Shown in pieces: positions 4,228-64,000 of a stretch of DNA of 64,000 nt. The translations under genes were made by a program, and so were the position numbers. Origin of the DNA: an uncultured Gammaproteobacteria bacterium (GTDB lineage: Bacteria; Patescibacteriota; Patescibacteriia; Magasanikbacterales; JBBTXJ01). Positions within the stretch are counted from its first letter, which is position 1. Each line of letters opens with the position of its first letter. The stretch is taken from assembly GCA_964610305.1 (NCBI GenBank), contig CAZSVL010000003.1, positions 13,122-77,121 of the forward strand, written 5' to 3'. The notes beneath the pieces are model-generated. The model had not been told where the DNA came from. It ran no database searches and saw only the letters and a program-made list of their open reading frames with translations.

Positions 4228-4788
4228 ATGGCATCCTACGAGATTTTAAAAAAGGGGACCGTTATCAAATATAAAGGTGCTCCTCATGTGGTGGTTTTTC
4301 ACCAGCATTATAAACCGGGCAAAGGCCCGGCTTTTGTGCGCACAAAGCTTAAGAATCTTATATCTGGAAACGTAATAGAGAATAATTTTAAGGGCGGAGA
4401 TCAGGTGGAGCCGGTAGAGGTAGAGCGTCAGAATTTGCAGTACTTATATCCGGGAGAGGGCGAGTATAATTTTATGCGTACCGATACCTATGAGCAAATA
4501 TCAATTCCGGCAGATGTAGTAGGGGATCAAATGCAATGGCTTAAAGAGAGTCAAGAGGTAATTGGACTTTTTTTTGAAGGATCAGTTGTTTCCGTAGATA
4601 TTCCAACCAAGTTAACGCTAAAAGTTGTCTCTGCTGGAGAGGGTGTTCGCGGTGATACGGCATCCGGAACCGCCACAAAAGAGGTGGAGCTAGAGACGGG
4701 AACAAAAATTCAGGTCCCACTTTTTATAAAACAAGGTCAGTCCGTTGTAATAAACACGGAAACAGGAAGCTACGCAGAAAGAGTGTAG
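4228..4788 (+). CDS. efp: Elongation factor P
   Basis: 186 aa. KGG...ATKEVELETGTKIQVPLFIKQGQSVVINTETGSYAERV matches the EF-P C-terminus. Confidence 0.9.
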   Translation: MASYEILKKGTVIKYKGAPHVVVFHQHYKPGKGPAFVRTKLKNLISGNVIENNFKGGDQVEPVEVERQNLQYLYPGEGEYNFMRTDTYEQISIPADVVGDQMQWLKESQEVIGLFFEGSVVSVDIPTKLTLKVVSAGEGVRGDTASGTATKEVELETGTKIQVPLFIKQGQSVVINTETGSYAERV

Positions 4789-4846
4789 CGGAGGGCGCAA
4801 GACAACTCGGTTTGCTAGGATGCAGTTTGTGCGTCCTTTTTTTATC

Positions 4847-4875
4847 TTGACAAATGTTTGTAACTAGGCTATAGT
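4847..4875 (+). promoter_or_regulatory. Consensus sigma70-type promoter (TTGACA, 17-bp spacer, TATAGT)
   Basis: TTGACA at 4847-4852 and TATAGT at 4870-4875. GGAGG ribosome-binding site before the ATG at 4908. Confidence 0.6.
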
Positions 4876-4907
4876 CTACTACGCACATTTACAACACGGA
4901 GGTCTCC

Positions 4908-6134
4908 ATGCGCAAGAGAAAATTGTGCACTAAATACGGCGAAATTCAGGTTCCAGCAAAGTCGCTGCACGGAAGCGCTGTGCTGTATTCTGAGCAGACG
5001 GTGGAGATTCTTGCTGGCACAAAAATGCGTGACGGCAAGGTTCTTAAAAAGTCAGTTACACTGCTCCCAGGAACCATCTTCATGCCACGGCTTCACAAGC
5101 CGGAGACAGGAAGGCCGTACTTTGTCTGGCAGATTTACGCTCAAGGAATCTTTGATGCTCTGCGCGGAATTATGCATATTCAGGCTGGCTACGATAGTCA
5201 GTATGAGCAGCGATACGGCCGGATGGGTGAGGTGCAGACCATAGAAGACGTGCGGTCAGCTCTGAACACCATTTTGGGATGGCTTGCCACTTACAGCAGC
5301 CTCTCTGATTTAGAGAAAGATGCGCTTGGTGAGTTTATCTCTGGAAAAACAGAGCTTGTGGGTAATGTTCAGGATGAGCATAAGCGCAGAGCGCTAGAGC
5401 GGATGATTGCCGCAAGCAAAGAAAAAGATTCTTCTGGGAAGTCTAACCCTAGTGCGCGTATGGCGCGCAGTGTTGGTGCCCGTAGAGATCTGCATGAGCG
5501 TCTGTCTCTGATCAGATTCATTGAGCCGCGGATTGGTACGCGCGCAGTTGCTTTGGCAACAGAAGACGCACGGATCCGCAGGATTTACGCGGACGCGTAC
5601 AAAAGATTTAGTGCCATTGAAAACTCAATCGGCAATGCAATTGCTGGTATGGGAGATAGCGCCAAGCGCTTTGCTGTTACGGTGATGGGAATGGTGGAAG
5701 ATCTGCAGACTATCAAGGTTGGACCCTATCCATCGCATGTGCAGAGGATCGTTAAAGATGCTCAGCAGGTTGGTAACTATATTGCAGCAAACCAAAAGAA
5801 GAAGGCACTTGCTGTACGCAAGAGGATCCTGGAGTCTCTGCGTTGCAAGAGAGCTCGCTGGCAGCTAGAGGGTATCCGTACGCCGCTTTCAATTGCAGCG
5901 GCAGGAAAAAAGAAAGATAGAGAAGCGGCTGTTGCGGCGGGGACACACAAGGTTTTTGCTGCAAGGTTGCAGGATTTCTCTGGAAGAATGGCAACCATTG
6001 CGGACGAGGATTTCAGCAAGAAAGTGAGATCCTTTGCGGTGGTGCGTTGTGATAAAGCGGCATCGCTCTTGATGGATCTGGAAGATTTTAGGGGTGCCAA
6101 GACCCTCGTCGGAGAAGCTTGTAACAGACTCTAG
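4908..6134 (+). CDS. Hypothetical protein (408 aa, Arg/Ala-rich, no recognisable domain)
   Basis: Long ORF with strong promoter and RBS. Composition is GC-richer than neighbouring genes. Confidence 0.6.
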   Translation: MRKRKLCTKYGEIQVPAKSLHGSAVLYSEQTVEILAGTKMRDGKVLKKSVTLLPGTIFMPRLHKPETGRPYFVWQIYAQGIFDALRGIMHIQAGYDSQYEQRYGRMGEVQTIEDVRSALNTILGWLATYSSLSDLEKDALGEFISGKTELVGNVQDEHKRRALERMIAASKEKDSSGKSNPSARMARSVGARRDLHERLSLIRFIEPRIGTRAVALATEDARIRRIYADAYKRFSAIENSIGNAIAGMGDSAKRFAVTVMGMVEDLQTIKVGPYPSHVQRIVKDAQQVGNYIAANQKKKALAVRKRILESLRCKRARWQLEGIRTPLSIAAAGKKKDREAAVAAGTHKVFAARLQDFSGRMATIADEDFSKKVRSFAVVRCDKAASLLMDLEDFRGAKTLVGEACNRL

Positions 6135-6434
6135 TTTGGTGGTGGCAGGATTGGCTGCTTATTAAAGAAAGAGGATGTTGCTACCATCATTCTACCTTAA
6201 AGATTTGCAGCAACAAGATTTAGCTTTTTGTAAGATGAACGTGCTGTTGCTGCTGTTTGTTTGCTACCCAAGAGAGGTTGTGTAGTAAGACGGTTCCGGC
6301 TGGGCGGCTTTTCTTTATTGAACTTTTCAGTGGCAAGATCGGCGAGCTGCAAGGACCAAGGGAGTGCCACTGTTTTCCGACGTTGCGTTGCAGCGTCGGT
6401 TTTTAATTTAAAAAGCGCCTTGCGGCGCCTTTTT

Positions 6435-7499
6435 CTATCCTGCAATGAGTTCCTGCTTCTCAACTTCTTCCAGTATCGCTTTCTTAATTTTCGGAATGAG
6501 CTTAGGATTGTCATTTTTCATATACAGCCTTGCTTTCTCCCTTCCCACACCCAAGCGCTCCTCGCCATAGGTGTAGCTGTTGCCGCTTTTTTTAATTACA
6601 CCATAGAGCACGCCGGCATCAAGCAAGTCTCCTGTAATTGAAATACCCTCGTTATACATTATGTTCACAATAGCTGTTCTAAACGGTGGTGCCACTTTAT
6701 TTTTAACAATCTTCACCTTCACTTGGTTGCCCACAATTTTGTCACTTTGTTTTATCTGAGCGCTGCGCCTTACTTCTATTCTAATACTTGAATAAAATTT
6801 AAGCGCGTTTCCTCCCGTGGTGGTCTCAGGATTGCCAAAGAAGACGCCAATTTTGTGCCGTGTTTGGTTTATAAAGATAACCACAGTATTTGTCTTTGCA
6901 ACAATACCCGCAAGTTTTCTGAGGGCTTGGCTCATGAGTCTTGCTTGCAGCCCCATGTGTCGATCCCCCATATCGCCCTCAATTTCCGCCTTGGGAACCA
7001 GTGCTGCAACAGAGTCAACAACAATAACATCAACAGCATTTGATCTCACCAGCGTCTCAACAATTTCCAAGGCTTGCTCACCAGTATCAGGCTGAGAAAT
7101 TAAAAGCTCATCTACATTCACACCAATTTTTTTTGCGTATTCTGGATCAAGCGCATGCTCTGCATCTACAAAAGCAGCCAGACCGCCTATTTTTTGAACC
7201 TCAGAAACAATGTGCTGCGCCAGCGTTGTTTTTCCTGATGCTTCTGGACCAAATACTTCTATTATTCTTCCGCGTGGTACGCCACCAATGCCCAGTGCAA
7301 TATCAATAGAGAGACAACCGGTAGGGATGGCGTCTATTTCAGTTCGTTTGGCCTGGCCGAACTTCATTATAGAGCCATCTCCAAATCTTTGCTTTATCTG
7401 ATCAATAGCGGCCTGCGCTGCCGCGGCTCTTGGGTCGGTCTTTTTGTTCTCCTCTTTCTTTTTCCCCTCCTTGGATTTAGTTTGCGTCTGCTCTGGCAT
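6435..7499 (-). CDS. recA: Recombinase RecA
   Basis: Walker [12 protein letters not shown], the L1/L2 regions and the overall RecA consensus are obvious. Confidence 0.95.
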
Positions 7500-11156: not shown

Positions 11157-11909
11157 TTACTGAACCTCAATCGCCTTAGGCGGGTTGTTGTCCAGAGATC
11201 TTGGGTCCAGTGCATGCAAGGCCTTGGAGTAGGCCTTGCTATGGCGGGGGCCCGCTGCCTTGTACACCTGCCAGGTGTCTGTGGCAATGGTATAGGTTAC
11301 GTAGCACGTCTCAAAGCCAGCCCAGGTCACGCCTTGTGCCTCTACGAACACACTGTGGTTCATAGACTGACCGGTGCACCAGTCCAGGCCGGTGGGCTCC
11401 TTCTGAATCCACTGACCGTTGCCCGTGAACACCCAGAGCGAGTGCAGACGACGTGTGCCGTCCTGGTCAGTAAAGACGGTTGCTATTCGGCCAGAGACAA
11501 ATGCGTAGTCGCTCGTCCAGTTGTGACTGAATGAGGTATGGCGAACCAGGCGATCCTCCGTCGCATCGTACTTGTAGATTCGGCTTCCCGAGCTAGTGAA
11601 GAAGTAAAGGCCGTTTTCCTGCTCAGAGGTCTGGGTCACTACGCTACTGCCCATAACCAGCTTTCTGCCGGTGGGCGTAACGAGAACCTGATACCGACTT
11701 CCTGGCATCTGGTGAATAGTGCGCCCCTCTACATCACTGACGATGATGTCCTCCGTCTGGTTCCACCAGTTGAGCGTCTTAAAGACACCAACGGTTTCAC
11801 TCTTGTGGAGCGTGTCAGCGCGCGCATCCTCATAGGTACTGTGGCTCGGCGGCTCATTGCAGCCAGCCAGCAGAAGTGCGATTGTCAAAACATTCAGAGC
11901 GGTTCTCAT
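11157..11909 (-). CDS. Hypothetical lipoprotein (signal peptide with LAGC lipobox)
   Basis: MRTALNVLTIALLLAGC lipobox. GC-richer than the genome background. Followed by the hairpin AGGGCAACGTGGAAACACCGCGCCCT plus a T-run. Confidence 0.65.
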   Translation of the reverse strand: MRTALNVLTIALLLAGCNEPPSHSTYEDARADTLHKSETVGVFKTLNWWNQTEDIIVSDVEGRTIHQMPGSRYQVLVTPTGRKLVMGSSVVTQTSEQENGLYFFTSSGSRIYKYDATEDRLVRHTSFSHNWTSDYAFVSGRIATVFTDQDGTRRLHSLWVFTGNGQWIQKEPTGLDWCTGQSMNHSVFVEAQGVTWAGFETCYVTYTIATDTWQVYKAAGPRHSKAYSKALHALDPRSLDNNPPKAIEVQ

Positions 11910-12228
11910 GTGCTTCCCCTTTCTGTGATTGTCTACTGTCTGTCCTACGGGCCGACCATGTGGTGGACATGATCGGCCGCTAGGACAGACTAGCGGGAAA
12001 AATTAGTCAGTAACAGTGGTCCTGATGCCCGAAGGCACCAGGGGACACTCGTTACTCACAAGTGTCTTAACCGGAAGGGCACGGCGCAACTGCAGCACGT
12101 TCTGGAAACCAGACCGCCACAGCATGGGTACGTCGCGCACAACCGAAATCATTGGCATTGGTAAACCCTCCCGCAAGCAGGAGGAGTGACGCGTCCAAAG
12201 CATGGATTGGGCGCGATACTCCTCTTCC

Positions 12229-12316
12229 GTCATTCTGAACTTGATTCAGAATCTCCCAAAGAAAACGGTTTAAGAAAAACGTCTTCTGTGAGATCCCAGA
12301 TCTTCTCTGGGATGAC
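12229..12316. repeat. GTCAT-family twin-hairpin repeat element
   Basis: GTCATTCTGAACTTGATTCAGAATCTC...GAGATCCCAGATCTTCTCTGGGATGAC. Confidence 0.8.
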
Positions 12317-12491
12317 AGAGATAAGGGGTCTACCAACAAACAGCAGGCATGATGGCATCGTTGGAGAAAGGAGGATGGGTGTTGCAAAGAACGCACCATC
12401 ATAACCTGCTGACTGTTGGTAGTAAGTTGTAAAAGATCCACACGCCCGCCGGTGATCGACGGGGTGTGGGGTCTTGGCTGTTTGTTGGGTT

Positions 12492-12872
12492 TTAGCTGCA
12501 ACGCTCTAGGCGAATTCGCGGATTCGTTCTTTCCGAGCGGGTGAACACGAATCGCAACTGCCCTTCCCAGGCCTTGTTGATACGAGCGATGAGCTCATGG
12601 AATTCCTGCAGATGCAGACCACTCGCGTGAACAGGATAAGTGGTAGACTCATCGCCGATCAGCGTGGTTTGGATAATGAGCAGCAGCGACGCGCCCAAAC
12701 GAGCGCGCACAAATGCCATCAGATCCAGCCGATCCACCTTGCGGCAGAAGTGCTCGCTGATCCGGTTGAGCTCCTGGTCCATAAGCAAGCTTTGCTCGCG
12801 GTACCAGATTCGGAAGGCCTGCGCCTCCTGACGTGGCACTGTGAATGAGATTTCGTTTACTCCTCCGTGCAT
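12492..12872 (-). CDS. Hypothetical protein (uncertain)
   Basis: ORF in a GC-rich island. Start taken at MHGGVNEISF. No family recognised. Confidence 0.3.
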   Translation of the reverse strand: MHGGVNEISFTVPRQEAQAFRIWYREQSLLMDQELNRISEHFCRKVDRLDLMAFVRARLGASLLLIIQTTLIGDESTTYPVHASGLHLQEFHELIARINKAWEGQLRFVFTRSERTNPRIRLERCS

Positions 12873-13142
12873 ACTCCCTCCCAAGAGTTCGTTTTCAAAC
12901 AAAAACAGTCACAGATCGTCCTCGGTAGCATGGCTGGCGCTTACCTTTTTTGTATATAGGTTTATATGCGACAGGTGCCCCCTCGGACGATCTCTGACTG
13001 CTTTAAAATTGTTAACGTTCTTTGCAACGACGATATCATTATAATACCGCAACTGCACACTATAGCACACTTTTGTCATTTTGTCAAGAGGAGATGCCTA
13101 TAATTTGGCTTATTTTAGCGCGATTTTGCATTTTGCTTCAGG

Positions 13143-13309
13143 GGTTAGGGGTTAGCGTGTAGGGTGTAGTGGTATCACCTTGTCATTCTGAACTTGATTC
13201 AGAATCTAGGAAGAAATTGAGCACGTCTTACTGTTCTAGTGGATCCTGAATCAAGTTCAGGATGATGCTATAGAGATTCTACACCCTACACCCTACGCCC
13301 TAACCACTA
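13143..13309. repeat. GTCAT-family twin-hairpin element (core 13192-13268) nested in ~30-bp outer inverted repeats
   Basis: Outer ggttaggggttagcgtgtagggtgtagtgg / ctacaccctacaccctacgccctaaccactag. Core GTCATTCTGAACTTGATTCAGAATC...GGATCCTGAATCAAGTTCAGGATGATGC. Confidence 0.8.
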
Positions 13310-56648: not shown

Positions 56649-57236
56649 TTATTCTACAATGAGAGATCCGGTCATACTCCCGTGGCCTGATCCGCATGGG
56701 ACGCTACATACCAGCGGGAATGTTCCCTTACTGCTGGCAGTAAATTCTATAGTGGTGGCTTTTCCAGGAGAGAGCACTTCATTTACGTTGAATGCTTTTA
56801 TGAAAATGCCGTGAGTGACATCCGTGCTTTCAATAATGAGTCTCACCGTGTCTCCTTGGTTTACTCTAACCACCTCTGGATCAAATTCCCATTTTCGTGC
56901 GGTCATGTTTATTATACGCAGCGCACCTTCATCAGACACCGGTGCTGCAGTCGTATTGCTGGATCCGTTCTGGTTCTGGGTCTCCGCCGACGCCCCCTCG
57001 TCGGCTGACGCTTTTGGGGCCGGCTCTGTCACTTGCTCTGTTGTCTCTTCTGTTGCCTCATCCTGCACCGTTTCTGCTGTTGGCTGATCAGGATCAACTA
57101 TTTCTACTGACACCTCTGCGCTGTTAGAGCTCTCACTCGTATCTGATGGGTCTGTTGTCTCTTCTGTATTTCCTCCAGAGCAGCCTGCGCCCAGAAGGAT
57201 AAGCGCCGCTACCGCGTATTTGAGTTTTTTTTGCAT
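56649..57236 (-). CDS. Cupredoxin-domain lipoprotein with CuA-type ligand motif
   Basis: Lipobox LLGAGC. Acidic low-complexity linker. C-terminal H...C-x3-C-G-x2-H-x2-M (HGIF...CSVPCGSGHGSM). Confidence 0.6.
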   Translation of the reverse strand: MQKKLKYAVAALILLGAGCSGGNTEETTDPSDTSESSNSAEVSVEIVDPDQPTAETVQDEATEETTEQVTEPAPKASADEGASAETQNQNGSSNTTAAPVSDEGALRIINMTARKWEFDPEVVRVNQGDTVRLIIESTDVTHGIFIKAFNVNEVLSPGKATTIEFTASSKGTFPLVCSVPCGSGHGSMTGSLIVE

Positions 57237-57325
57237 AGGTTTATGTTTACTTGAGCTTATCGTACCAAAGGCGCGCGCGCAAGTGGATTAAAAAACCCGC
57301 AACACCTGAGTGTGCGGGTGGGCTG

Positions 57326-58192
57326 TTAGGCCCGTGCTCGTGCTATAGCTGTGGCTTCTTCCTCCCAGCGCTGCCTTTCTGCCCTCTGAGCAATGGCTGG
57401 ATCAACAGCAAAGCTGAAACCCTCGTTCTGGAGCTTCTCCACCATCTCTGCAGAGAGAGGCGTGCGGTGACCGCTCCGTACATGGTTGTCCGTGAATTCA
57501 ACCCCGCAACCAGTGCAGTAGTTGAGATCCAGGCCACCACCACAGTTGGCGCAGTTGTAGTCGGTGAAGGCGCCGCGTCCGCCCTTCAGTTCAGCGGCAA
57601 TTGCAGGATCAGTTGTAGAGAAGACGATCGATTTCTCTAGCAGCTCAAACTCAGGCGCACTCGGATCGTTGTGGATTTTGTTGTAACCACGGTCCAGACA
57701 GAGCCACAGGTAGGTCACCGTGGTTGGATAACCTGGTCCGGTAGGTGCAGGGTGCAGTTTGGTCGGATCCTGCAGAATGATCTGCAGGACACTCTGCCAC
57801 GTGTCCTCTATCAGCTCATTGCCCCAATGTGACCGTGCGTAAGCCACCGCTCGCCTCTGCTGCTCGGTAGCCGCAGTATCGTCTAGTCGCTTAGAGAACG
57901 CGTAGTCTAGGCTGGGGTCTTTTTCTTCGTGGCCGGGCAGAAAGTTGATGACGTGAAATGCGCCAGCAATCCTGATGCCGGGAACAGCAACATATGGATG
58001 CTCCACCGCAAAGGCTGCAACAGCTTCTTCTGGTGTCAGGTGAGGACAGAGTGCAATCATGTCCTGCTCAGTTGGGTTTTCAATGGGCAGCCGCCTAAGA
58101 ATCTCTAGGTACTCACGTGAAGTCATGCTTCCTCCAGGAAAAGATTTGTTTCTAGATTCTTTCTTGATGGCTTCATAGCGTGAAGCTCTCAA
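57326..58192 (-). CDS. Hypothetical protein (GC-rich, Cys cluster CANCGGG...CTGCG)
   Basis: 288 aa. Lies immediately 3' of ssrA. Composition atypical for the window. Confidence 0.45.
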   Translation of the reverse strand: MRASRYEAIKKESRNKSFPGGSMTSREYLEILRRLPIENPTEQDMIALCPHLTPEEAVAAFAVEHPYVAVPGIRIAGAFHVINFLPGHEEKDPSLDYAFSKRLDDTAATEQQRRAVAYARSHWGNELIEDTWQSVLQIILQDPTKLHPAPTGPGYPTTVTYLWLCLDRGYNKIHNDPSAPEFELLEKSIVFSTTDPAIAAELKGGRGAFTDYNCANCGGGLDLNYCTGCGVEFTDNHVRSGHRTPLSAEMVEKLQNEGFSFAVDPAIAQRAERQRWEEEATAIARARA

Positions 58193-58222
58193 GAAAATGC
58201 CCCAGGTCTTACGCTGGGGCGG

Positions 58223-58585
58223 GGTGGAGGCGCCGGGAGTCGAACCCGGGTCCAGAAAGGTTGTTCATCTGCGTCTACGTGTGTATTCCTTGCATGGTTG
58301 CCTACGCTGCTTTGCCCAAGGACAGGCGGCTGCGCAGCCGGTTCATTGCTGTGTTTAAGACATGCTCCGCAATTCCATTAGAGCAGTACCGAGCCTACAT
58401 AAGTTTCCCTAATCCCGCCTATAGGCGAGCGAGCTTTGGGGTCGCATGCTGCGTACTAGGCAGCGAGCGCGACGGACTCAGCGTCAGTATTGGCGTCTGA
58501 GTTGCGCCCGGGGGATCAAAGGGTCCCAGACATCCCTTACACGCAGCAGGTAGCGTCCGCTCCCTGTCGAAACCAGTTCGCCCCC
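58223..58585 (-). ncRNA. ssrA: tmRNA (SsrA), tag peptide ANTDAESVALAA
   Basis: 5' GGGGGCGAACTGGTTTCGACAGGGA. tRNA-like 3' end GGGTTCGACTCCCGGCGCCTCCACC. In-frame GCC AAT ACT GAC GCT GAG TCC GTC GCG CTC GCT GCC TAG. Confidence 0.85.
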
Positions 58586-58598
58586 GTAAGGGTTTGTG

Positions 58599-58967
58599 TT
58601 AGTCAATGTCCAGATCATACTCGTCCCAGTAGGGGTCTCCGTCTAGATCTGCACATTCATCAGAGTGCGAAACGGCACAGCCTTCATCGCAGAAGTCCAT
58701 GTACCAATCGCAGCCTTCATCATAGCAGGATCTGCAATCAGCGAGTGCTTTGATGAAGTACTCGTTTTCGTCACAGAGCTCCCAGCTTTCCACTGTAGAG
58801 AGCTTGACCGATCCGAGGGTTGGTAGATCTTCAAAGGCCGCATCAAAGAGACCTTCCACGATCTCGTTTTTTGCGTCAAGGAGCGGCCGACTATTCCGGT
58901 GAAATGACATTGTTTCCCTTTTCAGTGAAAGAAGGACGATTAGCGCAGTATGAAGACAGTATAGCAC
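58599..58967 (-). CDS. Hypothetical acidic Cys-rich protein
   Basis: GC-rich ORF. The start may be the internal MSFHRN. Confidence 0.35.
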   Translation of the reverse strand: MLYCLHTALIVLLSLKRETMSFHRNSRPLLDAKNEIVEGLFDAAFEDLPTLGSVKLSTVESWELCDENEYFIKALADCRSCYDEGCDWYMDFCDEGCAVSHSDECADLDGDPYWDEYDLDID

Positions 58968-59073
58968 ATTTTGTACATTTTGTCAAGGGTAAAATGCCAC
59001 TTTATCTCTTATTTTAGCCAAATTTACGTAATAAAAAAACTGCCGTCTCCCGAAGGATCAGGCAGCGTGCACT

Positions 59074-59817
59074 TTACTGTTGAAAGTGCGGATTACGCTT
59101 CTGACACCAGAGCTTCTGACGCTCGTTCAGTGTGGACCAAAAGGCGACTTCGGCTTTGCTGAACTTCCTGCCCTGCCTGTAGTGGCCGATCAAGAAATCC
59201 TTTTTGATGCTGTAGCAGCGGCGTTGCCCACAGCTGTGGTAGACCTCTCTGGTTTCCCGCTCAGAGCCTTCCGTCAGTTCCATCCAGAAAAGCTCTTTGC
59301 CACTCACTTTGACCGCTCGGGAACCGATCCAAGCCTTGAGCATCTCATTGCTGATTTGCGGCTGGTGCGTTTTGTAACGCCGTCGCCAGGACCGGGGACT
59401 GCACTTGAGGATGCCGTCTTTGACGAAGGCGCCAAAGCAAGGCTTATCACCTTCACACCAGTGACAGCCAAAGCAGATCATTCGCGCGATGGTCTGCACC
59501 AGGACGTAGTTTCGCACTTTGCGCGTGTCGTAGCGTGCCGTCAGCTCGCTGTAGACATCGTCCCAGCGCCTGCCGTTTTGGGACTTCAGCCACTTGCTGA
59601 TGCATGCCGCGAAGTGATCGTGTTTGTCATCCCACCAGCCGGATTTTTCCAGCAGGGGAGTTGCCTGCTCGTCCCACAGATCAGGGTCTTGTGTCATTTT
59701 GTGACAGAACCGACGCGTCCTTTGCCTCTCCTTTCGCCGCAAAAAGGCGATGGCGTGTTTGTACCAGTTGGGGTGACCACCCTGCACGATGGTCCTTGCC
59801 AAGTTCCTGTTGGCCAT
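59074..59817 (-). CDS. Hypothetical protein (Trp/Cys/Arg-rich), paralogous N-terminus with 59944-60435
   Basis: MANRNLARTIVQGG...RRWDDVYSELTARYD. GC-rich. Confidence 0.45.
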   Translation of the reverse strand: MANRNLARTIVQGGHPNWYKHAIAFLRRKERQRTRRFCHKMTQDPDLWDEQATPLLEKSGWWDDKHDHFAACISKWLKSQNGRRWDDVYSELTARYDTRKVRNYVLVQTIARMICFGCHWCEGDKPCFGAFVKDGILKCSPRSWRRRYKTHQPQISNEMLKAWIGSRAVKVSGKELFWMELTEGSERETREVYHSCGQRRCYSIKKDFLIGHYRQGRKFSKAEVAFWSTLNERQKLWCQKRNPHFQQ

Positions 59818-59943
59818 GTTGGCCTCCCTGTTGATTTAACTAACCAACATGACTTACCTCCTCTGAATATTCCTTCGGCACAGAGCACAGCGTGTATGCC
59901 CTGTGTTAAAGTGCCATCCCGAGATTTTTCGGGATGGCTGGTG

Positions 59944-60435
59944 TTACTCTTCAGCGGTGTGCGGATGAGTGCTGGCGGTGGGGCGCCATCGCCATGGCGG
60001 AATTGCATTGTCACGCAAGATTCCGTCCTCATCAACTACGTAATAGGCTCCGCATTCGATGCTTTCTGAATCCACCATGTTTTGCTCGTGCCACATGGGC
60101 GCTACTTCTGGATCAATATGATCGTAGATCATATGACGCCCTTTGAGTGATCTTACATCGTGGCGTCGGTGGAGATCGCTTTTGACATCAGCCCATGGGC
60201 GTCCACATTGACGATCAAGCCAGCGATACACTGGATTGAGCGTATCAGAGAATTCTCGGTAGAACCAGCCACGATGCGGCTTGTCCTGGATGTCTAGATC
60301 ACTAGGATCTGCCGCGCATTGAAGAGTTCTCTTTGCGTTCTGCCGATTGTTGCGGTTGATTGCTCGGCGCTCAAATTTGCTTGCCTTGCTCCGGCCACCC
60401 TCAATGGCTGAGCGAGAGAGTTTTTTTGTTGCCAT
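59944..60435 (-). CDS. Hypothetical protein, paralogous N-terminus with 59074-59817
   Basis: MATKKLSRSAIEGG...RPWADVKSDLHRRHD. Confidence 0.45.
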   Translation of the reverse strand: MATKKLSRSAIEGGRSKASKFERRAINRNNRQNAKRTLQCAADPSDLDIQDKPHRGWFYREFSDTLNPVYRWLDRQCGRPWADVKSDLHRRHDVRSLKGRHMIYDHIDPEVAPMWHEQNMVDSESIECGAYYVVDEDGILRDNAIPPWRWRPTASTHPHTAEE

Positions 60436-60514
60436 GCAACCTCCAATGTAGATTAAATAATCTTCATTGTAGGCCTCCGTGTTTATGCATGATGTGCTCC
60501 TTTATGATGCGAAG

Positions 60515-60670
60515 TGGAAGGGGTAGGATTCGATGAGCAAATGAGTGAGTGTAATAAACATGCTCGCATGCTTATTACCGAGCGAATGCTGCTCGGCCCG
60601 AAGGGCACCTACGAAGACGGTGTCGTCGGATTTACAATCCGGTGCCTTTAACCAACTCGGCCACCCTTCC
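60515..60670 (-). tRNA. tRNA-Tyr (anticodon GTA), type II, carrying a 73-nt structured insertion in the T-loop between nt 54 and 55 (60534-60606)
   Basis: GGAAGGG...CCGGA-TTGTAAA-TCCGA...GTAGG-T[GCCCTTCGGGCCGAGCAGCATTCGCTCGGTAATAAGCATGCGAGCATGTTTATTACACTCACTCATTTGCTCA]TCGAAT-CCTAC-CCCTTCC-A. Confidence 0.6.
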
Positions 60671-60677
60671 ATTAAAG

Positions 60678-60752
60678 TATCCCCAAGGGGATTTGAACCC
60701 CTGCCTCCGGATTGAGAGTCCGGTGTCCTGAGCCTGACTAGACGATGGGGAC
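60678..60752 (-). tRNA. tRNA-Glu (anticodon CTC)
   Basis: GTCCCCATCGTCTAG...CCGGA-CTCTCAA-TCCGG...GGGG-TTCAAAT-CCCC. Confidence 0.75.
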
Positions 60753-60756
60753 GGGG

Positions 60757-60830
60757 CGGTGATGACGAGACTTGAACTCGCAACCTTCGGCCTGACAAGC
60801 CGCTACACTAGCCAATTGTGTTACATCACC
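60757..60830 (-). tRNA. tRNA-Asp (anticodon GTC)
   Basis: Acceptor GGTGATG/CATCACC-G, anticodon loop TTGTCAG. Confidence 0.7.
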
Positions 60831-60868
60831 TGAAGGCTTGCCTGGCGTAGCCGAAGGCGAAGCCTGGG

Positions 60869-60941
60869 TGGAGCCGACAGGAATCGAACCTGCGACATCC
60901 GGCGTGCAAAGCCGGCGCTCTCCCAACTGAGCTACAGCCCC
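60869..60941 (-). tRNA. tRNA-Ala (anticodon TGC), G3-U70; second copy
   Basis: GGGGCTG-TA-GCTC-AGTTGGGA-GAGC-G-CCGGC-TTTGCAC-GCCGG...CGGCTCC-A. Confidence 0.8.
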
Positions 60942-60948
60942 AAATAGG

Positions 60949-61037
60949 AGGAGGGGGTGGGATTTGAACCCACGGGACTCACTGGTGAGCCCAACGGGTT
61001 AGCAACCCGACGCCTTCAGCCACTCGGCCACCCCTCC
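60949..61037 (-). tRNA. tRNA-Ser (anticodon GCT), type II
   Basis: Acceptor GGAGGGG/CCCCTCC, 3-bp D-stem, anticodon loop TTGCTAA, long variable arm GGGCTCACCAGTGAGTCC. Confidence 0.75.
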
Positions 61038-61041
61038 ATAA

Positions 61042-61116
61042 TGCGCCCGGCGGGATTTGAACCCGCAACCACTGGATCCGGAGTCCAGCGCTCTACATCC
61101 ATTGAGCTACGGGCGT
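61042..61116 (-). tRNA. tRNA-Arg (anticodon CCG)
   Basis: ACGCCCG-TA-GCTC-AATGGATGTA-GAGC-G-CTGGA-CTCCGGA-TCCAG...GCGGG-TTCAAAT-CCCGC-CGGGCGC-A (A1-C72 mismatch). Confidence 0.7.
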
Positions 61117-61126
61117 TCAATGCTGA

Positions 61127-61181
61127 GGGCCGACGCTTTGGTCGCCCCCCCGACCCCTTCGGGCGTCGGGGCTACGGACGC
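61127..61181 (-). repeat. 44-nt twin-hairpin element (61127-61170) with an upstream pseudo-acceptor GCGTCCG-TAGC (61171-61181), duplicating the tRNA-Arg(CCG) 5' end
   Basis: RNA sense: GCGTCCG TAGC [CCCGACGCCCGAAGGGGTCGGGGGGGCGACCAAAGCGTCGGCCC] TCAGCATTGA ACGCCCGTAGC... Confidence 0.6.
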
Positions 61182-61186
61182 TTAAG

Positions 61187-61259
61187 TACGCCGTGAGGGA
61201 ATTGAACCCCCGACCCATGGATTAAAAGTCCAGTGCTCTACCTACTGAGCTAACAGCGC
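61187..61259 (-). tRNA. tRNA-Lys (anticodon TTT)
   Basis: GCGCTGT-TA-GCTC-AGTAGGTA-GAGC-A-CTGGA-CTTTTAA-TCCAT...GGGGG-TTCAATT-CCCTC-ACGGCGT-A. Confidence 0.7.
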
Positions 61260-61265
61260 ATAAAA

Positions 61266-61338
61266 GGTGAATGACGGGACTTGAACCCGCGACCTCTGGA
61301 GCCACAATCCAGCGCTCTCCCATCTGAGCTACATTCAC
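61266..61338 (-). tRNA. tRNA-His (anticodon GTG), C73
   Basis: GTGAATG-TA-GCTC...CTGGA-TTGTGGC-TCCAG...GCGGG-TTCAAGT-CCCGT-CATTCAC-C. Confidence 0.75.
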
Positions 61339-61340
61339 AG

Positions 61341-61413
61341 TGCCAGAGACAAGAATTGAACTTGTGACTCAGGGATTTTCAATCCCCAGCTCTACCTACT
61401 GAGCTACCCTGGC
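61341..61413 (-). tRNA. tRNA-Phe (anticodon GAA), intact, A37
   Basis: GCCAGGG-TA-GCTC-AGTAGGTA-GAGC-T-GGGGA-TTGAAAA-TCCCT-GAGTC-ACAAG-TTCAATT-CTTGT-CTCTGGC-A. Confidence 0.8.
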
Positions 61414-61415
61414 AT

Positions 61416-61489
61416 AGAACGGAGGGGGACTCGAACCCCCGAACATCCGATTTGCAGTCGGAGCCCTTAGCCAACTCGGGTACCCGTTC
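61416..61489 (-). tRNA. tRNA-Cys (anticodon GCA), U73; second copy
   Basis: GAACGGG...TCCGA-CTGCAAA-TCGGA-TGTTC-GGGGG-TTCGAGT-CCCCC-TCCGTTC-T. Confidence 0.75.
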
Positions 61490-61496
61490 AGAGATT

Positions 61497-61530
61497 TGTC
61501 TCCCTTCGGGAGATCTCCCGAAGGGAGACA
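61497..61530. repeat. 34-bp perfect palindrome (twin hairpin) upstream of tRNA-Cys; homologous to 1419-1452
   Basis: tgtctcccttcgggagatctcccgaagggagaca. Confidence 0.85.
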
Positions 61531-61567
61531 GTCCTGTACCTAGCCAATTCGGACACTCATCCAGAAG

Positions 61568-61713
61568 TGCGCACACTTGGACTTGATCGGTAAACGAGTG
61601 AGTGGAGTAGGCATGCTTGCATGTCTACTCCCGAGCAAGTGCGACCGAGCCCGAAGGGTACCAAGGACCCTCTGGGTGTAAACCAGATGCTCTCCCAACT
61701 GAGCTATGCACGC
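61568..61713 (-). tRNA. tRNA-Val (anticodon TAC) carrying a 73-nt structured insertion in the T-loop between nt 54 and 55 (61587-61659)
   Basis: GCGTGCA-TA-GCTC-AGTTGGGA-GAGC-A-TCTGG-TTTACAC-CCAGA-GGGTC-CTTGG-T[ACCCTTCGGGCTCGGTCGCACTTGCTCGGGAGTAGACATGCAAGCATGCCTACTCCACTCACTCGTTTACCGA]TCAAGT-CCAAG-TGTGCGC-A. Confidence 0.6.
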
Positions 61714-61717
61714 GCAG

Positions 61718-61799
61718 TAGGTCGGGGGAGACTTGAACTCCCACGTCTAATGACACCAGATTTTGAATCTGGCGCGTCTACCGGTTCCGCCACCGACCC
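61718..61799 (-). tRNA. tRNA-Leu (anticodon CAA), type II
   Basis: GGGTCGG-TG-GCG...CCAGA-TTCAAAA-TCTGG-TGTCATTAGACGT-GGGAG-TTCAAGT-CTCCC-CCGACCT-A. Confidence 0.75.
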
Positions 61800-61871
61800 G
61801 TCTTTGTAATATGCTTCTATCAGAAAGTGAAGATTCACCGTCTGAATAAAAGGGGGAAGAGACTTCCCCGG

Positions 61872-61988
61872 AGCGGTAAGCCGGCCTCGAACCGACGACC
61901 CTCTGCTTGGAAGGCAGACGCTCTACCAACTGAGGACCGACGTTTCAGTCGGTCCCCCGACCCCTTTAGGCGTCGGGGCTATTACCGT
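61872..61988 (-). tRNA. tRNA-Gly (anticodon TCC) copy interrupted in the D-stem (between nt 11 and 12) by a 44-nt twin-hairpin element (61934-61977)
   Basis: ACGGTAA-TA-GC[CCCGACGCCTAAAGGGGTCGGGGGACCGACTGAAACGTCGGTCC]TC-AGTTGGTA-GAGC-G-TCTGC-CTTCCAA-GCAGA-GGGTC-GTCGG-TTCGAGG-CCGGC-TTACCGC-T. Confidence 0.55.
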
Positions 61989-61998
61989 AAATTTAAAG

Positions 61999-62071
61999 AG
62001 CGGATGATCGGGCTTGAACCGATGACTATCTGGTTGGAAGCCAGATGCTCTCCCAACTGAGCTACATCCGC
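61999..62071 (-). tRNA. tRNA-Gly (anticodon TCC), intact array copy
   Basis: GCGGATG-TA-GCTC-AGTTGGGA-GAGC-A-TCTGG-CTTCCAA-CCAGA-TAGTC-ATCGG-TTCAAGC-CCGAT-CATCCGC-T. Confidence 0.8.
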
Positions 62072-62075
62072 AAAG

Positions 62076-62148
62076 TACGCCGTGGAGGATTCGAACCTCC
62101 GACCGATGGATTAAGAGTCCACTGCTCTACCAACTGAGCTAACAGCGC
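62076..62148 (-). tRNA. tRNA-Lys (anticodon CTT)
   Basis: GCGCTGT-TA-GCTC-AGTTGGTA-GAGC-A-GTGGA-CTCTTAA-TCCAT-CGGTC-GGAGG-TTCGAAT-CCTCC-ACGGCGT-A. Confidence 0.75.
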
Positions 62149-62153
62149 AAAAG

Positions 62154-62224
62154 CTCGGGAACTAGGATTCGAACCTAGATGAACTGATCCAGAGTCAGCC
62201 GTCCTGCCGTTAGACGATTCCCGA
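62154..62224 (-). tRNA. tRNA-Gln (anticodon CTG)
   Basis: TCGGGAA-TC-GTCT-AACGGCA-GGAC-G-GCTGA-CTCTGGA-TCAGT...CTAGG-TTCGAAT-CCTAG-TTCCCGA-G. Confidence 0.75.
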
Positions 62225-62234
62225 ATGGTTAGTT

Positions 62235-62309
62235 GTCATTGCGAGCAGTGTAACTGCGAAGCAATCCGGTATGTAAGCAACGGGATTGCTTCGCTTTGCT
62301 TGCAATGAC
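62235..62309. repeat. GTCAT-family long-hairpin repeat (subtype B) inside the tRNA array
   Basis: GTCATTGCGAGCAGTGTAACTGCGAAGCAATCC...GGGATTGCTTCGCTTTGCTTGCAATGAC. Confidence 0.8.
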
Positions 62310-62317
62310 GAGAGAGG

Positions 62318-62410
62318 AAGAGGGACTGGGATTCGAACCCAGGGAGCATCTTTTTAGGACGCCCAACGGTTTTCAAGACCGCCGCCTTCGACCAACTCGG
62401 CCACCCCTCC
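62318..62410 (-). tRNA. tRNA-Ser (anticodon TGA), type II
   Basis: GGAGGGG-TG-GCC...GCGGT-CTTGAAA-ACCGT + long variable arm + CTGGG-TTCGAAT-CCCAG-TCCCTCT-T. Confidence 0.7.
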
Positions 62411-62414
62411 AGAG

Positions 62415-62485
62415 CTCCGGAACTAGGATTCGAACCTAGATAATAAGATCCAAAGTCTTACGTCCTGCCGTTAGACGATTCCGGA
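62415..62485 (-). tRNA. tRNA-Gln (anticodon TTG)
   Basis: TCCGGAA-TC-GTCT...TAAGA-CTTTGGA-TCTTA...CTAGG-TTCGAAT-CCTAG-TTCCGGA-G. Confidence 0.75.
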
Positions 62486-62503
62486 ATAAGGTGGTAAGAA
62501 AGG

Positions 62504-62577
62504 GGCCGGAGATCGGAATCGAACCGATGACCTGCGGGTTACAAATCCGCTGCTCTACCTAACTGAGCTAATCCGGC
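62504..62577 (-). tRNA. tRNA-Thr (anticodon TGT)
   Basis: GCCGGAT-TA-GCTC-AGTTAGGTA-GAGC-A-GCGGA-TTTGTAA-CCCGC-AGGTC-ATCGG-TTCGATT-CCGAT-CTCCGGC-C. Confidence 0.65.
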
Positions 62578-62582
62578 AAAAG

Positions 62583-62656
62583 TACGCCACCTAGGATTTG
62601 AACCTAGGACCTCTGGCTCCGCAAGCCAACGCTCTGTCCAACTGAGCTAGTGGCGC
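62583..62656 (-). tRNA. tRNA-Arg (anticodon GCG)
   Basis: GCGCCAC-TA-GCTC-AGTTGGACA-GAGC-G-TTGGC-TTGCGGA-GCCAG-AGGTC-CTAGG-TTCAAAT-CCTAG-GTGGCGT-A. Confidence 0.65.
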
Positions 62657-62657
62657 G

Positions 62658-62729
62658 CAGGCGGGGGAGGATTTGAACCTCCAGTCCAGGATTTGGAATC
62701 CTGTGGTTTGCCAATTAACCGACCCACCC
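62658..62729 (-). tRNA. tRNA-Trp (anticodon CCA)
   Basis: GGGTGGG-TC-GGTT-AATTGGCA-AACC-A-CAGGA-TTCCAAA-TCCTG-GACTG-GAGG-TTCAAAT-CCTC-CCCGCCT-G. Confidence 0.7.
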
Positions 62730-62733
62730 AAAG

Positions 62734-62807
62734 TCCCCGGAGGTGGAGTTGAACCACCGACCTTTGGCATATCAGACCATTGCTCTAACCAACTGAGCTA
62801 CCCGGGA
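62734..62807 (-). tRNA. tRNA-Ile (anticodon GAT)
   Basis: TCCCGGG-TA-GCTC-AGTTGGTTA-GAGC-A-ATGGT-CTGATAT-GCCAA-AGGTC-GGTGG-TTCAACT-CCACC-TCCGGGG-A. Confidence 0.7.
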
Positions 62808-62813
62808 GTAAAG

Positions 62814-62898
62814 TAGGCGAGGTGGGACTTGAACCCACACGTCATAAGACACTGGAACCTAAACCCAGCGCGTCTGCCAAATGTTCCGCCACTCGCCC
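62814..62898 (-). tRNA. tRNA-Leu (anticodon TAG), type II
   Basis: GGGCGAG-TG-GCGG...CTGGG-TTTAGGT-TCCAG-TGTCTTATGACGT-GTGGG-TTCAAGT-CCCAC-CTCGCCT-A. Confidence 0.75.
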
Positions 62899-62903
62899 TT
62901 ATT

Positions 62904-63086
62904 TTATTTCCACTGTCTTTTGCGCAGCTTTTTCCAGCTTTTGCTACGGCTTGATCGTGACTCGTTCTCAAATGAGTGCGGCTTGCAAAAAGAGCACTTA
63001 CCTGTCTTCTGAGAAATGACACCACGCCGCGCTTGGTTGTAAATCCTGCTTTCCGTTGCGCCGTCCATGATCTTCTTGAAGCTCAT
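62904..63086 (-). CDS. Small basic hypothetical protein (60 aa) embedded in the tRNA array
   Basis: Strong ribosome-binding site AGGAGA, 5 nt, then ATG. MSFKKIMDGATESRIYNQARRGVISQKTGKCSFCKPHSF... has no family assignment. Confidence 0.4.
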   Translation of the reverse strand: MSFKKIMDGATESRIYNQARRGVISQKTGKCSFCKPHSFENESRSSRSKSWKKLRKRQWK

Positions 63087-63103
63087 TTCTATCTCCTAAG
63101 AAG

Positions 63104-63176
63104 TACGCCATGGAGGATTCGAACCTCCGACCAGTGGGTTAGAAATCCACTGCTCTGTCCCCTGAGCTAATGGCGC
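63104..63176 (-). tRNA. tRNA-Arg (anticodon TCT), intact
   Basis: GCGCCAT-TA-GCTC-AGGGGACA-GAGC-A-GTGGA-TTTCTAA-CCCAC-TGGTC-GGAGG-TTCGAAT-CCTCC-ATGGCGT-A. Confidence 0.75.
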
Positions 63177-63247
63177 ATAGTGCTTTCGCAAAGCTGCTGC
63201 TAAATGCCCGGCGCAGGGATCTGACGACCCCTGCGCCTGGGCTTGCG

Positions 63248-63700
63248 TTAGGCGCTCATGATCTGTTCTTGGCTCCAGAGTGAATCTGGTGTAAAGAACT
63301 GATCTGCAGGCAAGCGGCCTTTCTGGTACTGCTGTGCCTCAGGTGAATCCGGCGGGTATTCCGTAAGTGCGGTAAACACGCACGGGCCGGAAGACCAAGG
63401 TGCGGCTTGCACCGCTTCAAAGAGTACACGTCCCAAAGGGAAGGTAAACTTTGAAAGCGTCACAAGTGAATCTGCGCCACATTGCTCTGCTTCATCGCAC
63501 GGCAGCGCAAAGGGATCTAGCCAGCTGTAGCCTCCCTCCTGATGAAGAACCGTGCTCTTGTAGAGCAGTCGGTCCTCCTGAGGCTCTCTTGTGCCGTCCG
63601 GAAAAATCCGGACTACTTGCTCGGTACACCAGTGCACCTGCTCGCCTGCCACGAGCTCTTGGGCTTTTTGGGTAAGCCCGAACCACTGCGTTGCGCGCAT
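63248..63700 (-). CDS. Hypothetical protein (GC-rich)
   Basis: 150-aa ORF with composition atypical for the window. No family recognised. Confidence 0.4.
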   Translation of the reverse strand: MRATQWFGLTQKAQELVAGEQVHWCTEQVVRIFPDGTREPQEDRLLYKSTVLHQEGGYSWLDPFALPCDEAEQCGADSLVTLSKFTFPLGRVLFEAVQAAPWSSGPCVFTALTEYPPDSPEAQQYQKGRLPADQFFTPDSLWSQEQIMSA

Positions 63701-63810
63701 GCGTCCTCCTTTGCTGGCGCTTCTTCTCTGAGAATTTCATGCTAGGTTATCTCTAGCTAACCAACATGAAGGACGCTGCTTTTGTGCTTTGGAGCACAAG
63801 TATCCCCAAC

Positions 63811-63830
63811 CGGATTTGCCCTGCACTACA
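63811..63830 (-). pseudogene. Fragment of the tRNA-Glu 3' end (about 20 bp) followed by a 9-bp-stem hairpin
   Basis: tatccccaaccggatttgcc versus tatccccaaggggatttgaacc of the intact gene. Then the hairpin CACCCTGAAcctttatggTTCAGGGTG. Confidence 0.5.
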
Positions 63831-63891
63831 AGAGTGCGGGGCACCCTGAACCTTTATGGTTCAGGGTGAACCCTGAGAAAGTATCCCCAAG

Positions 63892-63966
63892 GGGATTTGA
63901 ACCCCTGTTGCCAGCTTGAAAGGCTGGCGTCCTAGGCCGTACTAGACGATGGGGACTAAAGTAGCG
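63892..63966 (-). tRNA. tRNA-Glu (anticodon TTC)
   Basis: GTCCCCATCGTCTAGTACGGCCTAGGAC-GCCAGC-CTTTCAA-GCTGGC...GGGG-TTCAAAT-CCCC-TTGGGGAT-A. Confidence 0.75.
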
Positions 63967-63971
63967 GGAAC

Positions 63972-64000
63972 CGGATTTGAACCGGCGACCTCTGGGGTAT
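63972..64000 (-). tRNA. tRNA 3' portion (T-arm GCCGG-TTCAAAT-CCGGT, acceptor TCCCGCT-A). The gene continues beyond the window edge.
   Basis: Reverse complement of the window end reads ...GGTCGCCGGTTCAAATCCGGTTCCCGCTAC. Confidence 0.5.

Follow-up and report, generated by a model that had tools for sequence, protein, structure and literature searches.

The gene of the transfer-messenger RNA (tmRNA), ssrA, is a known hotspot for integration. Islands and prophages are found at its 3' end, e.g., CP4-57 in Escherichia coli and VPI in Vibrio cholerae. Here, we analyze the ssrA locus of a 64,000-nt stretch of contig CAZSVL010000003.1 (hereafter, the window), for which a preliminary description had proposed a genomic island integrated at ssrA. 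Two other types of systems resemble this locus. The tRNA arrays known as L-arrays, e.g., the trn operon of Anabaena PCC 7120, spread horizontally, carry surplus tRNAs, and have neighborhoods enriched in rtcB (Santamaria-Gomez et al. 2021, PMC8421152). Their hallmarks are a high density of genes on a single strand, the lack of a periodic pattern, the redundancy of isodecoders, and large differences between relatives (PMC8421152). Mycobacteria and mycobacteriophages have tRNA array units that sometimes include a tmRNA and comprise mostly hypothetical coding sequences (Morgado & Vicente 2018, PMC5966550), and an HNH endonuclease is frequent, albeit not universal, in the described arrays (PMC5966550). 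The reading that we favor, with a probability of about 0.55, is that ssrA lies inside an old and fast-changing unit of this kind (L-array or tRNA array), which is rich in G+C at third codon positions (GC3) and carries passenger genes, and that it is not the attachment (att) site of an integrase.

The window is part of a bacterial chromosome, since it carries rpoB, rpoC, ftsK, recA, ruvB, ruvC, ssb, and efp, as well as the genes of ribosomal protein S6, glmS, IMPDH, and the class II ribonucleotide reductase. The block of interest covers at least 6.7 kb, from about 57.3 kb to beyond the window end at 64 kb (Table 1). The tRNA array that had been placed beyond the genes on the 5' side of ssrA is indeed there and has at least 22 tRNA genes. 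The 22 canonical ones are packed within 3.28 kb, together with aberrant tRNA-like pieces and two open reading frames (ORFs), and the array runs off the window end. The partial tRNA-Met at the window edge indicates that it continues beyond 64 kb. The contrast in composition with the housekeeping genes also stands. The GC content is 0.52-0.56 in the 1-kb windows of 57001-64000 and about 0.40-0.50 in most other parts of the stretch, and the GC3 of five ORFs of the block is 0.50-0.72, against 0.34-0.47 in eleven housekeeping genes. We infer a foreign origin for this block.

We regard the block as being of the L-array type because its tRNA genes are dense and on one strand, because of its apparent isodecoder redundancy within the 64 kb, because its content is unlike that of the one available relative, and because hypothetical coding sequences are interspersed in it. 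As in L-arrays, the tRNA genes are in tandem without periodic pattern, some may be surplus isodecoders of dispersed host tRNAs, and the size of the array would be patchy between relatives. Both also have a link to rtcB neighborhoods, which in the window is made via a family of paralogs described below. There are nevertheless differences. The visible part of the block lacks an HNH homing endonuclease (no HNH domain was found in any block ORF by Pfam and PHROG scans), a tmRNA lies at the edge of the array, and the host looks like a small-genome, Patescibacteria-like bacterium and not like a cyanobacterium, a Firmicute, or an actinobacterium. Finally, the block is partly common to a diverged relative, which implies that its acquisition was not recent. 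The units of Mycobacterium chromosomes, plasmids, and cluster C phages are also similar to the window in that they associate an array with one tmRNA, mostly hypothetical coding sequences, and a GC content hinting at transfer. However, the mycobacterial array tmRNA is an extra copy next to the host ssrA, whereas that of the window may be the working host gene, as its tag and synteny are conserved, and the window block has no RF-1-domain, Pth, or HNH genes.

The tmRNA gene at 58222-58585 is confirmed as real, and it is absent from the annotation. As had been proposed, the minus strand carries it. ARAGORN delimits the gene to 58223-58585 and reads the tag as ANTDAESVALAA followed by a TAG stop, and the covariance model RF00023 matches it with 137.3 bits (gathering score 47, E value 1.3e-53), with all model positions (1-374 of 374) covered. 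The acceptor pairing and T-arm reported earlier can both be read in the RF00023 alignment and in the sequence, and an in-frame tag is given by ARAGORN. More precisely, the acceptor stem pairs GGGGGCG with CGCCUCC, including a G3:U pair, the T-arm is readable in the sequence as GGGTTCGACTCCCGG and is given as GGGUUCGACUCCC for the tRNA-like domain, and the internal tag frame has an alanine resume codon and a stop. The ORFs said to overlap the gene are three spurious ones on the plus strand (58180-58500, 58197-58358, and 58490-58753). The tmRNA of the relative (139.5 bits) has an identical tag and 88% column identity with that of the window; the differences concern the pseudoknot region, with hardly any change in the tag or the tRNA-like domain. 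We found no SmpB among the window ORFs scanned. The tmRNA is most likely functional.

The pattern matches for a promoter and a hairpin, together with the spacing of the genes, suggest an ORF103-ssrA transcript from which the tmRNA would be processed, with the caveat that promoter-like sites are no more numerous in the region than in shuffled sequence (consensus scan). ORF103 and the tmRNA would probably be co-transcribed from the promoter-like site at 58986-58958, the 5' end of the tmRNA would be released by RNase P, and the transcript would terminate at the hairpin directly 3' of the tmRNA. Together with SmpB, whose gene is not in the window, the tmRNA would then rescue stalled ribosomes and tag their peptides with ANTDAESVALAA.

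Table 1. Features of the ssrA locus and of the adjoining tRNA array (window coordinates).
Feature	Position	Strand	Evidence
ORF266, hypothetical, CxxC...CxxC motif, GC3 0.57	57326-58126	minus	ORF and ribosome-binding site
Terminator-like hairpin GCCCCAG...CTGGGGC with T-rich tail, directly 3' of tmRNA	58199-58220	minus	Consensus scan, pattern match only
tmRNA (ssrA), full length	58222-58585	minus	ARAGORN and Rfam RF00023
ORF103, small, very acidic, Cys-rich	58599-58910	minus	ORF list
Sigma-70-like promoter TTGACA-17-TATACT, extended TG (11/12), 5' of ORF103 and tmRNA	58958-58986	minus	Consensus scan, pattern match only
Paralog B, 247 amino acids, full-length family member, GC3 0.72	59074-59817	minus	BLASTP, profile, AlphaFold2 (AF2)
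Paralog A, 163 amino acids, C-terminally truncated	59944-60435	minus	Comparison with the 268-amino-acid L003 orthologue
tRNA-Tyr(GTA)-like gene, T-loop region with about 75 inserted nt	60515-60670	minus	Rfam tRNA, 37.8 bits over 156 nt
22 canonical tRNA genes, tandem, one strand	60677-63956	minus	ARAGORN and Rfam, 45-72 bits each
Array order: Glu-CTC, Asp, Ala, Ser, Arg, Lys, His, Phe, Cys, Leu, Gly			
Array order, continued: Lys, Gln, Ser, Gln, Thr, Arg, Trp, Ile, Leu, Arg, Glu-TTC			
Partial or aberrant tRNA-Gly(TCC)-like fragment	61874-61938	minus	Rfam, 30.4 bits
ORF150, hypothetical, inside the array, GC3 0.58	63248-63700	minus	ORF list
tRNA-Met, 3' part, cut by the window end	63959-64000	minus	blastn against L003

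The proposal of an island integrated at ssrA fails its defining tests, as we found no integrase, no att repeat, and no empty site. Because the gene runs along the minus strand, DNA integrated at its 3' end would be expected on the side of the lower coordinates. Scans with Pfam of 52 window ORFs, including all plausible ones of at least 120 amino acids from the ssrA 3' end to 44.8 kb and covering most of the other parts of the window, revealed no integrase or recombinase, the sole transposase found being of the IS110 type and 14 kb away (42468-44228). The duplicated ssrA 3' end that the preliminary description had suggested to search for was not found either: neither a 31-mer nor a 20-mer of it, with as many as 3 mismatches allowed, has a second occurrence in the 64 kb. 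The repeats present in 56.5-64 kb are tRNA-derived families and two local elements, none of them bracketing ORF266 or an island. The relative, the only informative one, does not provide an empty site, as ssrA is flanked there by the same genes in either direction, and this conserved gene order counts against a recent insertion. A classical island or prophage that a tyrosine integrase had inserted at the ssrA 3' end would account for the atypical composition of the adjacent DNA, as in the islands known at this site, and for the position of ORF266 directly after the 3' end of a gene with a reputation as an integration hotspot. Yet the GC-rich DNA found on both sides of ssrA is mostly 5' and amounts to only one gene (0.8 kb) on the 3' side, where ORF266 is alone between ssrA and the host cupredoxin gene. 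Moreover, this gene has the same position in the relative and is not surrounded by direct repeats. This explanation is thus largely refuted within the window, and we regard it as very improbable. What remains of the initial proposal are the atypical composition and some links to mobile DNA, via the paralog family; the integrase-target mechanism does not stand.

The relative is represented by a 25.6-kb contig (L003), which is collinear with the window over 52.97-60.43 kb; a third relative (L061 and L062) is too short to reach ssrA, and a scan of JGI metagenomes with the cupredoxin neighbor gave no further ones. The order in L003 is the tRNA array, paralog A, paralog B, a small acidic ORF, the tmRNA, and the homologue of ORF266, followed by a membrane ORF of 118 amino acids and the genes of the cupredoxin, the 2-hydroxyacid dehydrogenase, and the BNR and DM13 proteins. 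In the window, the genes beyond ORF266 are those of a cupredoxin lipoprotein, a 2-hydroxyacid dehydrogenase, a BNR/sortilin protein, and a DM13 protein, and the 118-amino-acid ORF, present in L003 and in L061 and L062, is missing. The preliminary description held that an identical gene order with a uniform composition in the relatives would speak against an island. The order around ssrA is indeed the same in L003, but the composition is not uniform in either genome. The GC3 of the block exceeds that of the flanks in L003 (0.58-0.75 versus 0.36-0.51) as well as for the two genomes together (0.50-0.75 versus 0.34-0.51).

The block evolves faster than its surroundings. The identity between the proteins of the window and of L003 is 31-72% in the block versus 71-84% in the flanks, and the dispersed tRNA-Gly-GCC is 97% identical while the tRNAs common to the two arrays are about 78-81% identical. 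At the equivalent site, L003 has six tRNAs (Asn, Pro, Met, Glu-TTC, Lys-TTT, and Tyr) versus at least 22 in the window, and those common to both (Met and Glu-TTC, as well as Tyr judging by position) are at the two ends. For example, L003 8337-8456, with tRNA-Met and tRNA-Glu-TTC, matches window positions 64000-63881 at 81% (blastn). The window thus has about 20 extra tRNA genes, as well as ORF150. There is decay on both sides, as paralog A is truncated in the window (163 versus 268 amino acids) and ORF266 is frameshifted in L003. The block is older than the split between the two genomes, and its copies have since diverged in the number of tRNAs and by gene decay. Next to its array, L003 also has about 2 kb of GC-rich DNA (4700-6800, GC content 0.53) with no ORF above 93 amino acids and no Rfam match.

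The comparison with L003 also bears on the possibility that the block is a native and vertically inherited cluster of RNA genes, whose GC content would result from the RNA genes and from a local mutational or expression regime, and not from a foreign origin. This fits a diverged relative with the same order and composition, and the absence of mobility genes and att repeats. Where the block can be aligned, its nucleotide identity with L003 is 69-85%, close to the 69-78% seen for the flanking genes. In addition, the homologue of the paralogs in Sungiibacteriota is in an ordinary chromosomal context without GC anomaly. However, the GC3 excess concerns the third positions of protein-coding genes, not the RNA genes alone, about 16-20 tRNA genes differ at this site between the two relatives, and genes of the block are decaying in one genome or the other. 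The paralog family is also patchy, being otherwise found mostly in phages and Myxococcota. Finally, the remaining 57 kb of the window have eight dispersed tRNA genes, and four anticodons of the array (Cys-GCA, Ala-TGC, Gly-TCC, and Phe-GAA) are also found among the dispersed ones within the same 64 kb. These array and dispersed pairs are only 57-73% identical for Cys, Ala, and Gly-TCC, the three for which identity was measured; the dispersed Phe copy was read from the sequence. Hence, we consider a native cluster to be somewhat unlikely.

The two genes upstream of ORF103 had been described as sharing a paralogous N-terminus. The paralogy is real (27% identity, E value 4e-11, BLASTP), and it is not restricted to the N-terminus, as it reaches about 168 residues. 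Paralog A is 72% identical over 145 amino acids to its orthologue in L003 (P0004, L003 9059-9865) and lacks the C-terminal domain. Paralog B has a single non-self homologue, that of L003, among 5.8 billion proteins. A profile made from seven members retrieved a much larger family, with 2,423 cluster representatives at E <= 1e-3, of which 313 at E <= 1e-30, among 1.84 billion proteins. None of 143 members has a match in Pfam, and the profile finds no sequence in the PDB. The AF2 model of paralog B has a predicted local distance difference test (pLDDT) score of 83, i.e., the structure is predicted with confidence, and it has no relative among known folds; a first model, based on 7 sequences, was unusable (pLDDT 49.5). 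The conserved residues E12, D67, D97, H104, and H109 are suggestive of an active site. A resemblance of paralog A to the RpbA protein of phage T4 (18 bits in Pfam for a cutoff of 25, and an E value of 1e-4 in PHROG) was rejected as due to chance, because the PHROG match occurs in only one of the 143 members and the Pfam one in none.

The genomic contexts of the family point to RNA. Its carriers on the phage side are 14 IMG/VR contigs (9.6-481 kb, six of them above 170 kb) and one phage-like ENA contig, and in 13 of these 15 loci the 10 kb around the family gene include 6-34 tRNA genes. In seven loci, the family gene is preceded on its own strand by a tRNA gene whose end is 32-281 nt away. Two of them, L006 and L009, are phage loci and five (L023, L035, L042, L051, and L055) are contigs of bacterial metagenome-assembled genomes (MAGs); the same arrangement is found in the window and in L003. 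We also studied 41 bacterial loci from species-representative genomes, one of Sungiibacteriota and the rest mostly of Myxococcota. RtcB (PF01139, E value 1.6e-121) is within 10 kb of the family gene in 14 of them and immediately downstream in eight, with well under one such locus expected by chance (rough estimate). The closest species-representative genome with the family of paralog A is a Candidatus Sungiibacteriota MAG, where the neighbors include an ATP-dependent ligase-like gene. The family is not exclusive to tRNA arrays or to phages. Because its members lie downstream of tRNA genes or directly upstream of RtcB, we propose that they may act on tRNA or other RNA, in repair, processing, or protection against anticodon nucleases, and not in DNA mobility. 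A role in tRNA or RNA repair would fit the published enrichment of rtcB around L-arrays.

The loci where RtcB directly follows the family gene on the same strand are from Myxococcota MAGs (L021, L024, L026, L027, L031, L037, L048, and L059), with the family gene at about position 10001 in most of the eight. In a rough neighbor-joining tree, these RtcB-linked members form a subclade of their own, apart from the members embedded in tRNA arrays, and the tree is too star-like for naming a donor. Searches with tblastn gave no match in GenBank phages for paralog B and the L003 paralog A, and none in PLSDB plasmids for the latter.

The association of the family with phages raises the question of whether the window end cuts a resident prophage or another large mobile element, with its own tRNA array and with the tmRNA as cargo, like those of cluster C mycobacteriophages and huge phages, the host ssrA being elsewhere. 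Indeed, huge or jumbo phages have the family in their tRNA arrays (IMG/VR loci L006-L019), just downstream of tRNA genes and on their strand, phage and array-borne tmRNAs are documented (PMC5966550), and the block runs off the window end. Several observations make this explanation decidedly improbable. The window is bacterial chromosome and has no other phage gene in common with these arrays, and none of the 15 phage loci has a tmRNA within 10 kb of the family gene. The back-translated pattern of the tag has no match in IMG/VR, nor in JGI metagenomes. The block ORFs of the window have no PHROG or Pfam match to structural, packaging, or replication functions of phages, and the DNA of L003 past the array has no phage genes (TrmB, DUF2617, and hypotheticals). 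Last, an identical tag and a conserved tRNA-like domain in two diverged genomes fit a housekeeping role.

The other passenger genes have few relatives. ORF266 is the GC-rich hypothetical gene that had been noted at 57326-58192, and it is present with a shorter extent. Its start is most likely the ATG at 58126, preceded by a GGAGGA ribosome-binding site and giving 266 amino acids, and a start at the TTG at 58192 is less likely. An independent assembly of the reads of SRR8146441 (Logan contig L002) has exactly this product of 266 amino acids. It has no Pfam or PHROG family, and its homologue in L003 is 59-63% identical and split by the frameshift. ORF103 has no Pfam match and its counterpart in L003 (10934-11257), at the matching position, is 31-34% identical. 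The end of ORF103 is separated from the 5' end of the tmRNA by 13 nt, in the window as in L003, so that this pairing is kept in both genomes despite the low identity of the proteins. The exact product of ORF150 is on record in Logan contig L001, and it has no Pfam or PHROG match and no homologue in viral contigs or in any of the loci fetched, L003 included. When ORF266, ORF103, and ORF150 were searched with tblastn in all 60 fetched loci, only the copies of the relative matched. Finally, between tRNA-Arg-TCT and tRNA-Leu-TAG of the array, there is a very basic ORF of 60 amino acids (62904-63086, minus strand) with a CxxC motif, a good ribosome-binding site, and no Pfam match.

Several points weigh against our reading of the locus as an old tRNA array unit of foreign origin. 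The far boundary of the block is beyond the window, so that no mobility gene, HNH endonuclease, or junction of it is in view. No donor emerged: none of the phage loci that were fetched has tRNAs closely matching those of the array, and phage relatives are lacking for ORF266, ORF103, and ORF150 among the fetched loci, for ORF266 and ORF150 in IMG/VR, and for ORF266 in GenBank phages (tblastn). The block is old and common to the relative, yet still GC3-rich, and this persistence counts against us because, had there been one ancient transfer followed by simple amelioration, the excess would have been eroded. The count of tmRNA copies covers the 64-kb window. Concerning the paralog family, 11 or 12 of the 15 phage loci form one syntenic clade, to which L006, L009, and L019 do not belong, so these phage contexts cannot be counted as separate observations, and 35 of the 41 bacterial loci, including that of Sungiibacteriota (L020), have no tRNA within 10 kb.

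Under our preferred reading, the initial idea of atypical and possibly foreign DNA around ssrA is retained in another form, with huge phages drawing on the gene pool of the passenger proteins. A bolder version, which we find quite unlikely, is that the working ribosome-rescue RNA of this small-genome lineage is itself the cargo of a domesticated translation module derived from phages (tRNA array, tmRNA, and accessory proteins) that still exchanges with phages, the paralog family of 2,423 clusters being a new factor for tRNA repair or against anticodon nucleases.

The array has other unusual features. For the tRNA-Tyr-like gene, the insertion was located by alignment to the intact tRNA-Tyr of L003, and the fold z-score is -3.95. 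A tRNA-Val(TAC)-like gene (61568-61714, minus strand) and the tRNA-Tyr-like gene have homologous structured insertions of about 75-90 nt, which are 72% identical, sit at the start of the T-loop, and are too short for a group I intron. The tRNA-Tyr of L003 is without insertion, and neither IMG/VR nor the fetched loci gave a further copy of the element. Among its possible origins are an intron, a small mobile insertion, and an event making pseudogenes. A GC-rich hairpin element of 52 nt occurs twice (61123-61174 and 61930-61981, 85% identical), once upstream of tRNA-Arg-CCG and once fused 5' of the truncated tRNA-Gly(TCC)-like fragment, and a further tRNA remnant is at about 63798-63875. Outside the array, the dispersed tRNA-Phe(GAA) (45571-45859, minus strand) has its anticodon loop split by a group I intron (RF00028, 83.8 bits, 45617-45837) and was not called by ARAGORN; the tRNA-Phe of the array is intronless (61340-61413). 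tRNA genes that carry a group I intron are common in Patescibacteria (PMC13011429). Such an intron, the Candidatus Sungiibacteriota MAG mentioned above, and the gene content are three weak hints at a Patescibacteria-like host.

The window has other regions of unusual composition. A GC-rich patch (41202-44591, GC content 0.52-0.53) includes the IS110-family transposase-like gene mentioned above, which is flanked by different tRNA-Leu(UAA) genes at 41202 and 44509. The latter were rejected as an att duplication, being only 64% identical. Patches of GC3-rich ORFs (0.50-0.68) without Pfam match are also found at 11157-12902 and 40530-41087. These observations suggest that the chromosome has several pockets of atypical DNA. 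In addition, an intergenic element of about 90 nt is present in non-syntenic repeats in the window (12225-12321 and 13182-13208) and in L003 (13820-13906 and 15015-15108), with a stretch of 27 nt that is 100% identical between both organisms.

For the ssrA locus, these results mean that an atypical GC content next to ssrA does not, on its own, indicate an island brought by an integrase. The locus widens the known range of long tRNA arrays, here with a tmRNA included and in a host that is probably Patescibacteria-like. The lead most worth following is the paralog family, which is large and has no match in Pfam, PHROG, or the PDB. Judging by its contexts, the family may take part in the repair of tRNAs or in a conflict that opposes phage tRNAs to the tRNA-cleaving defenses of their hosts.

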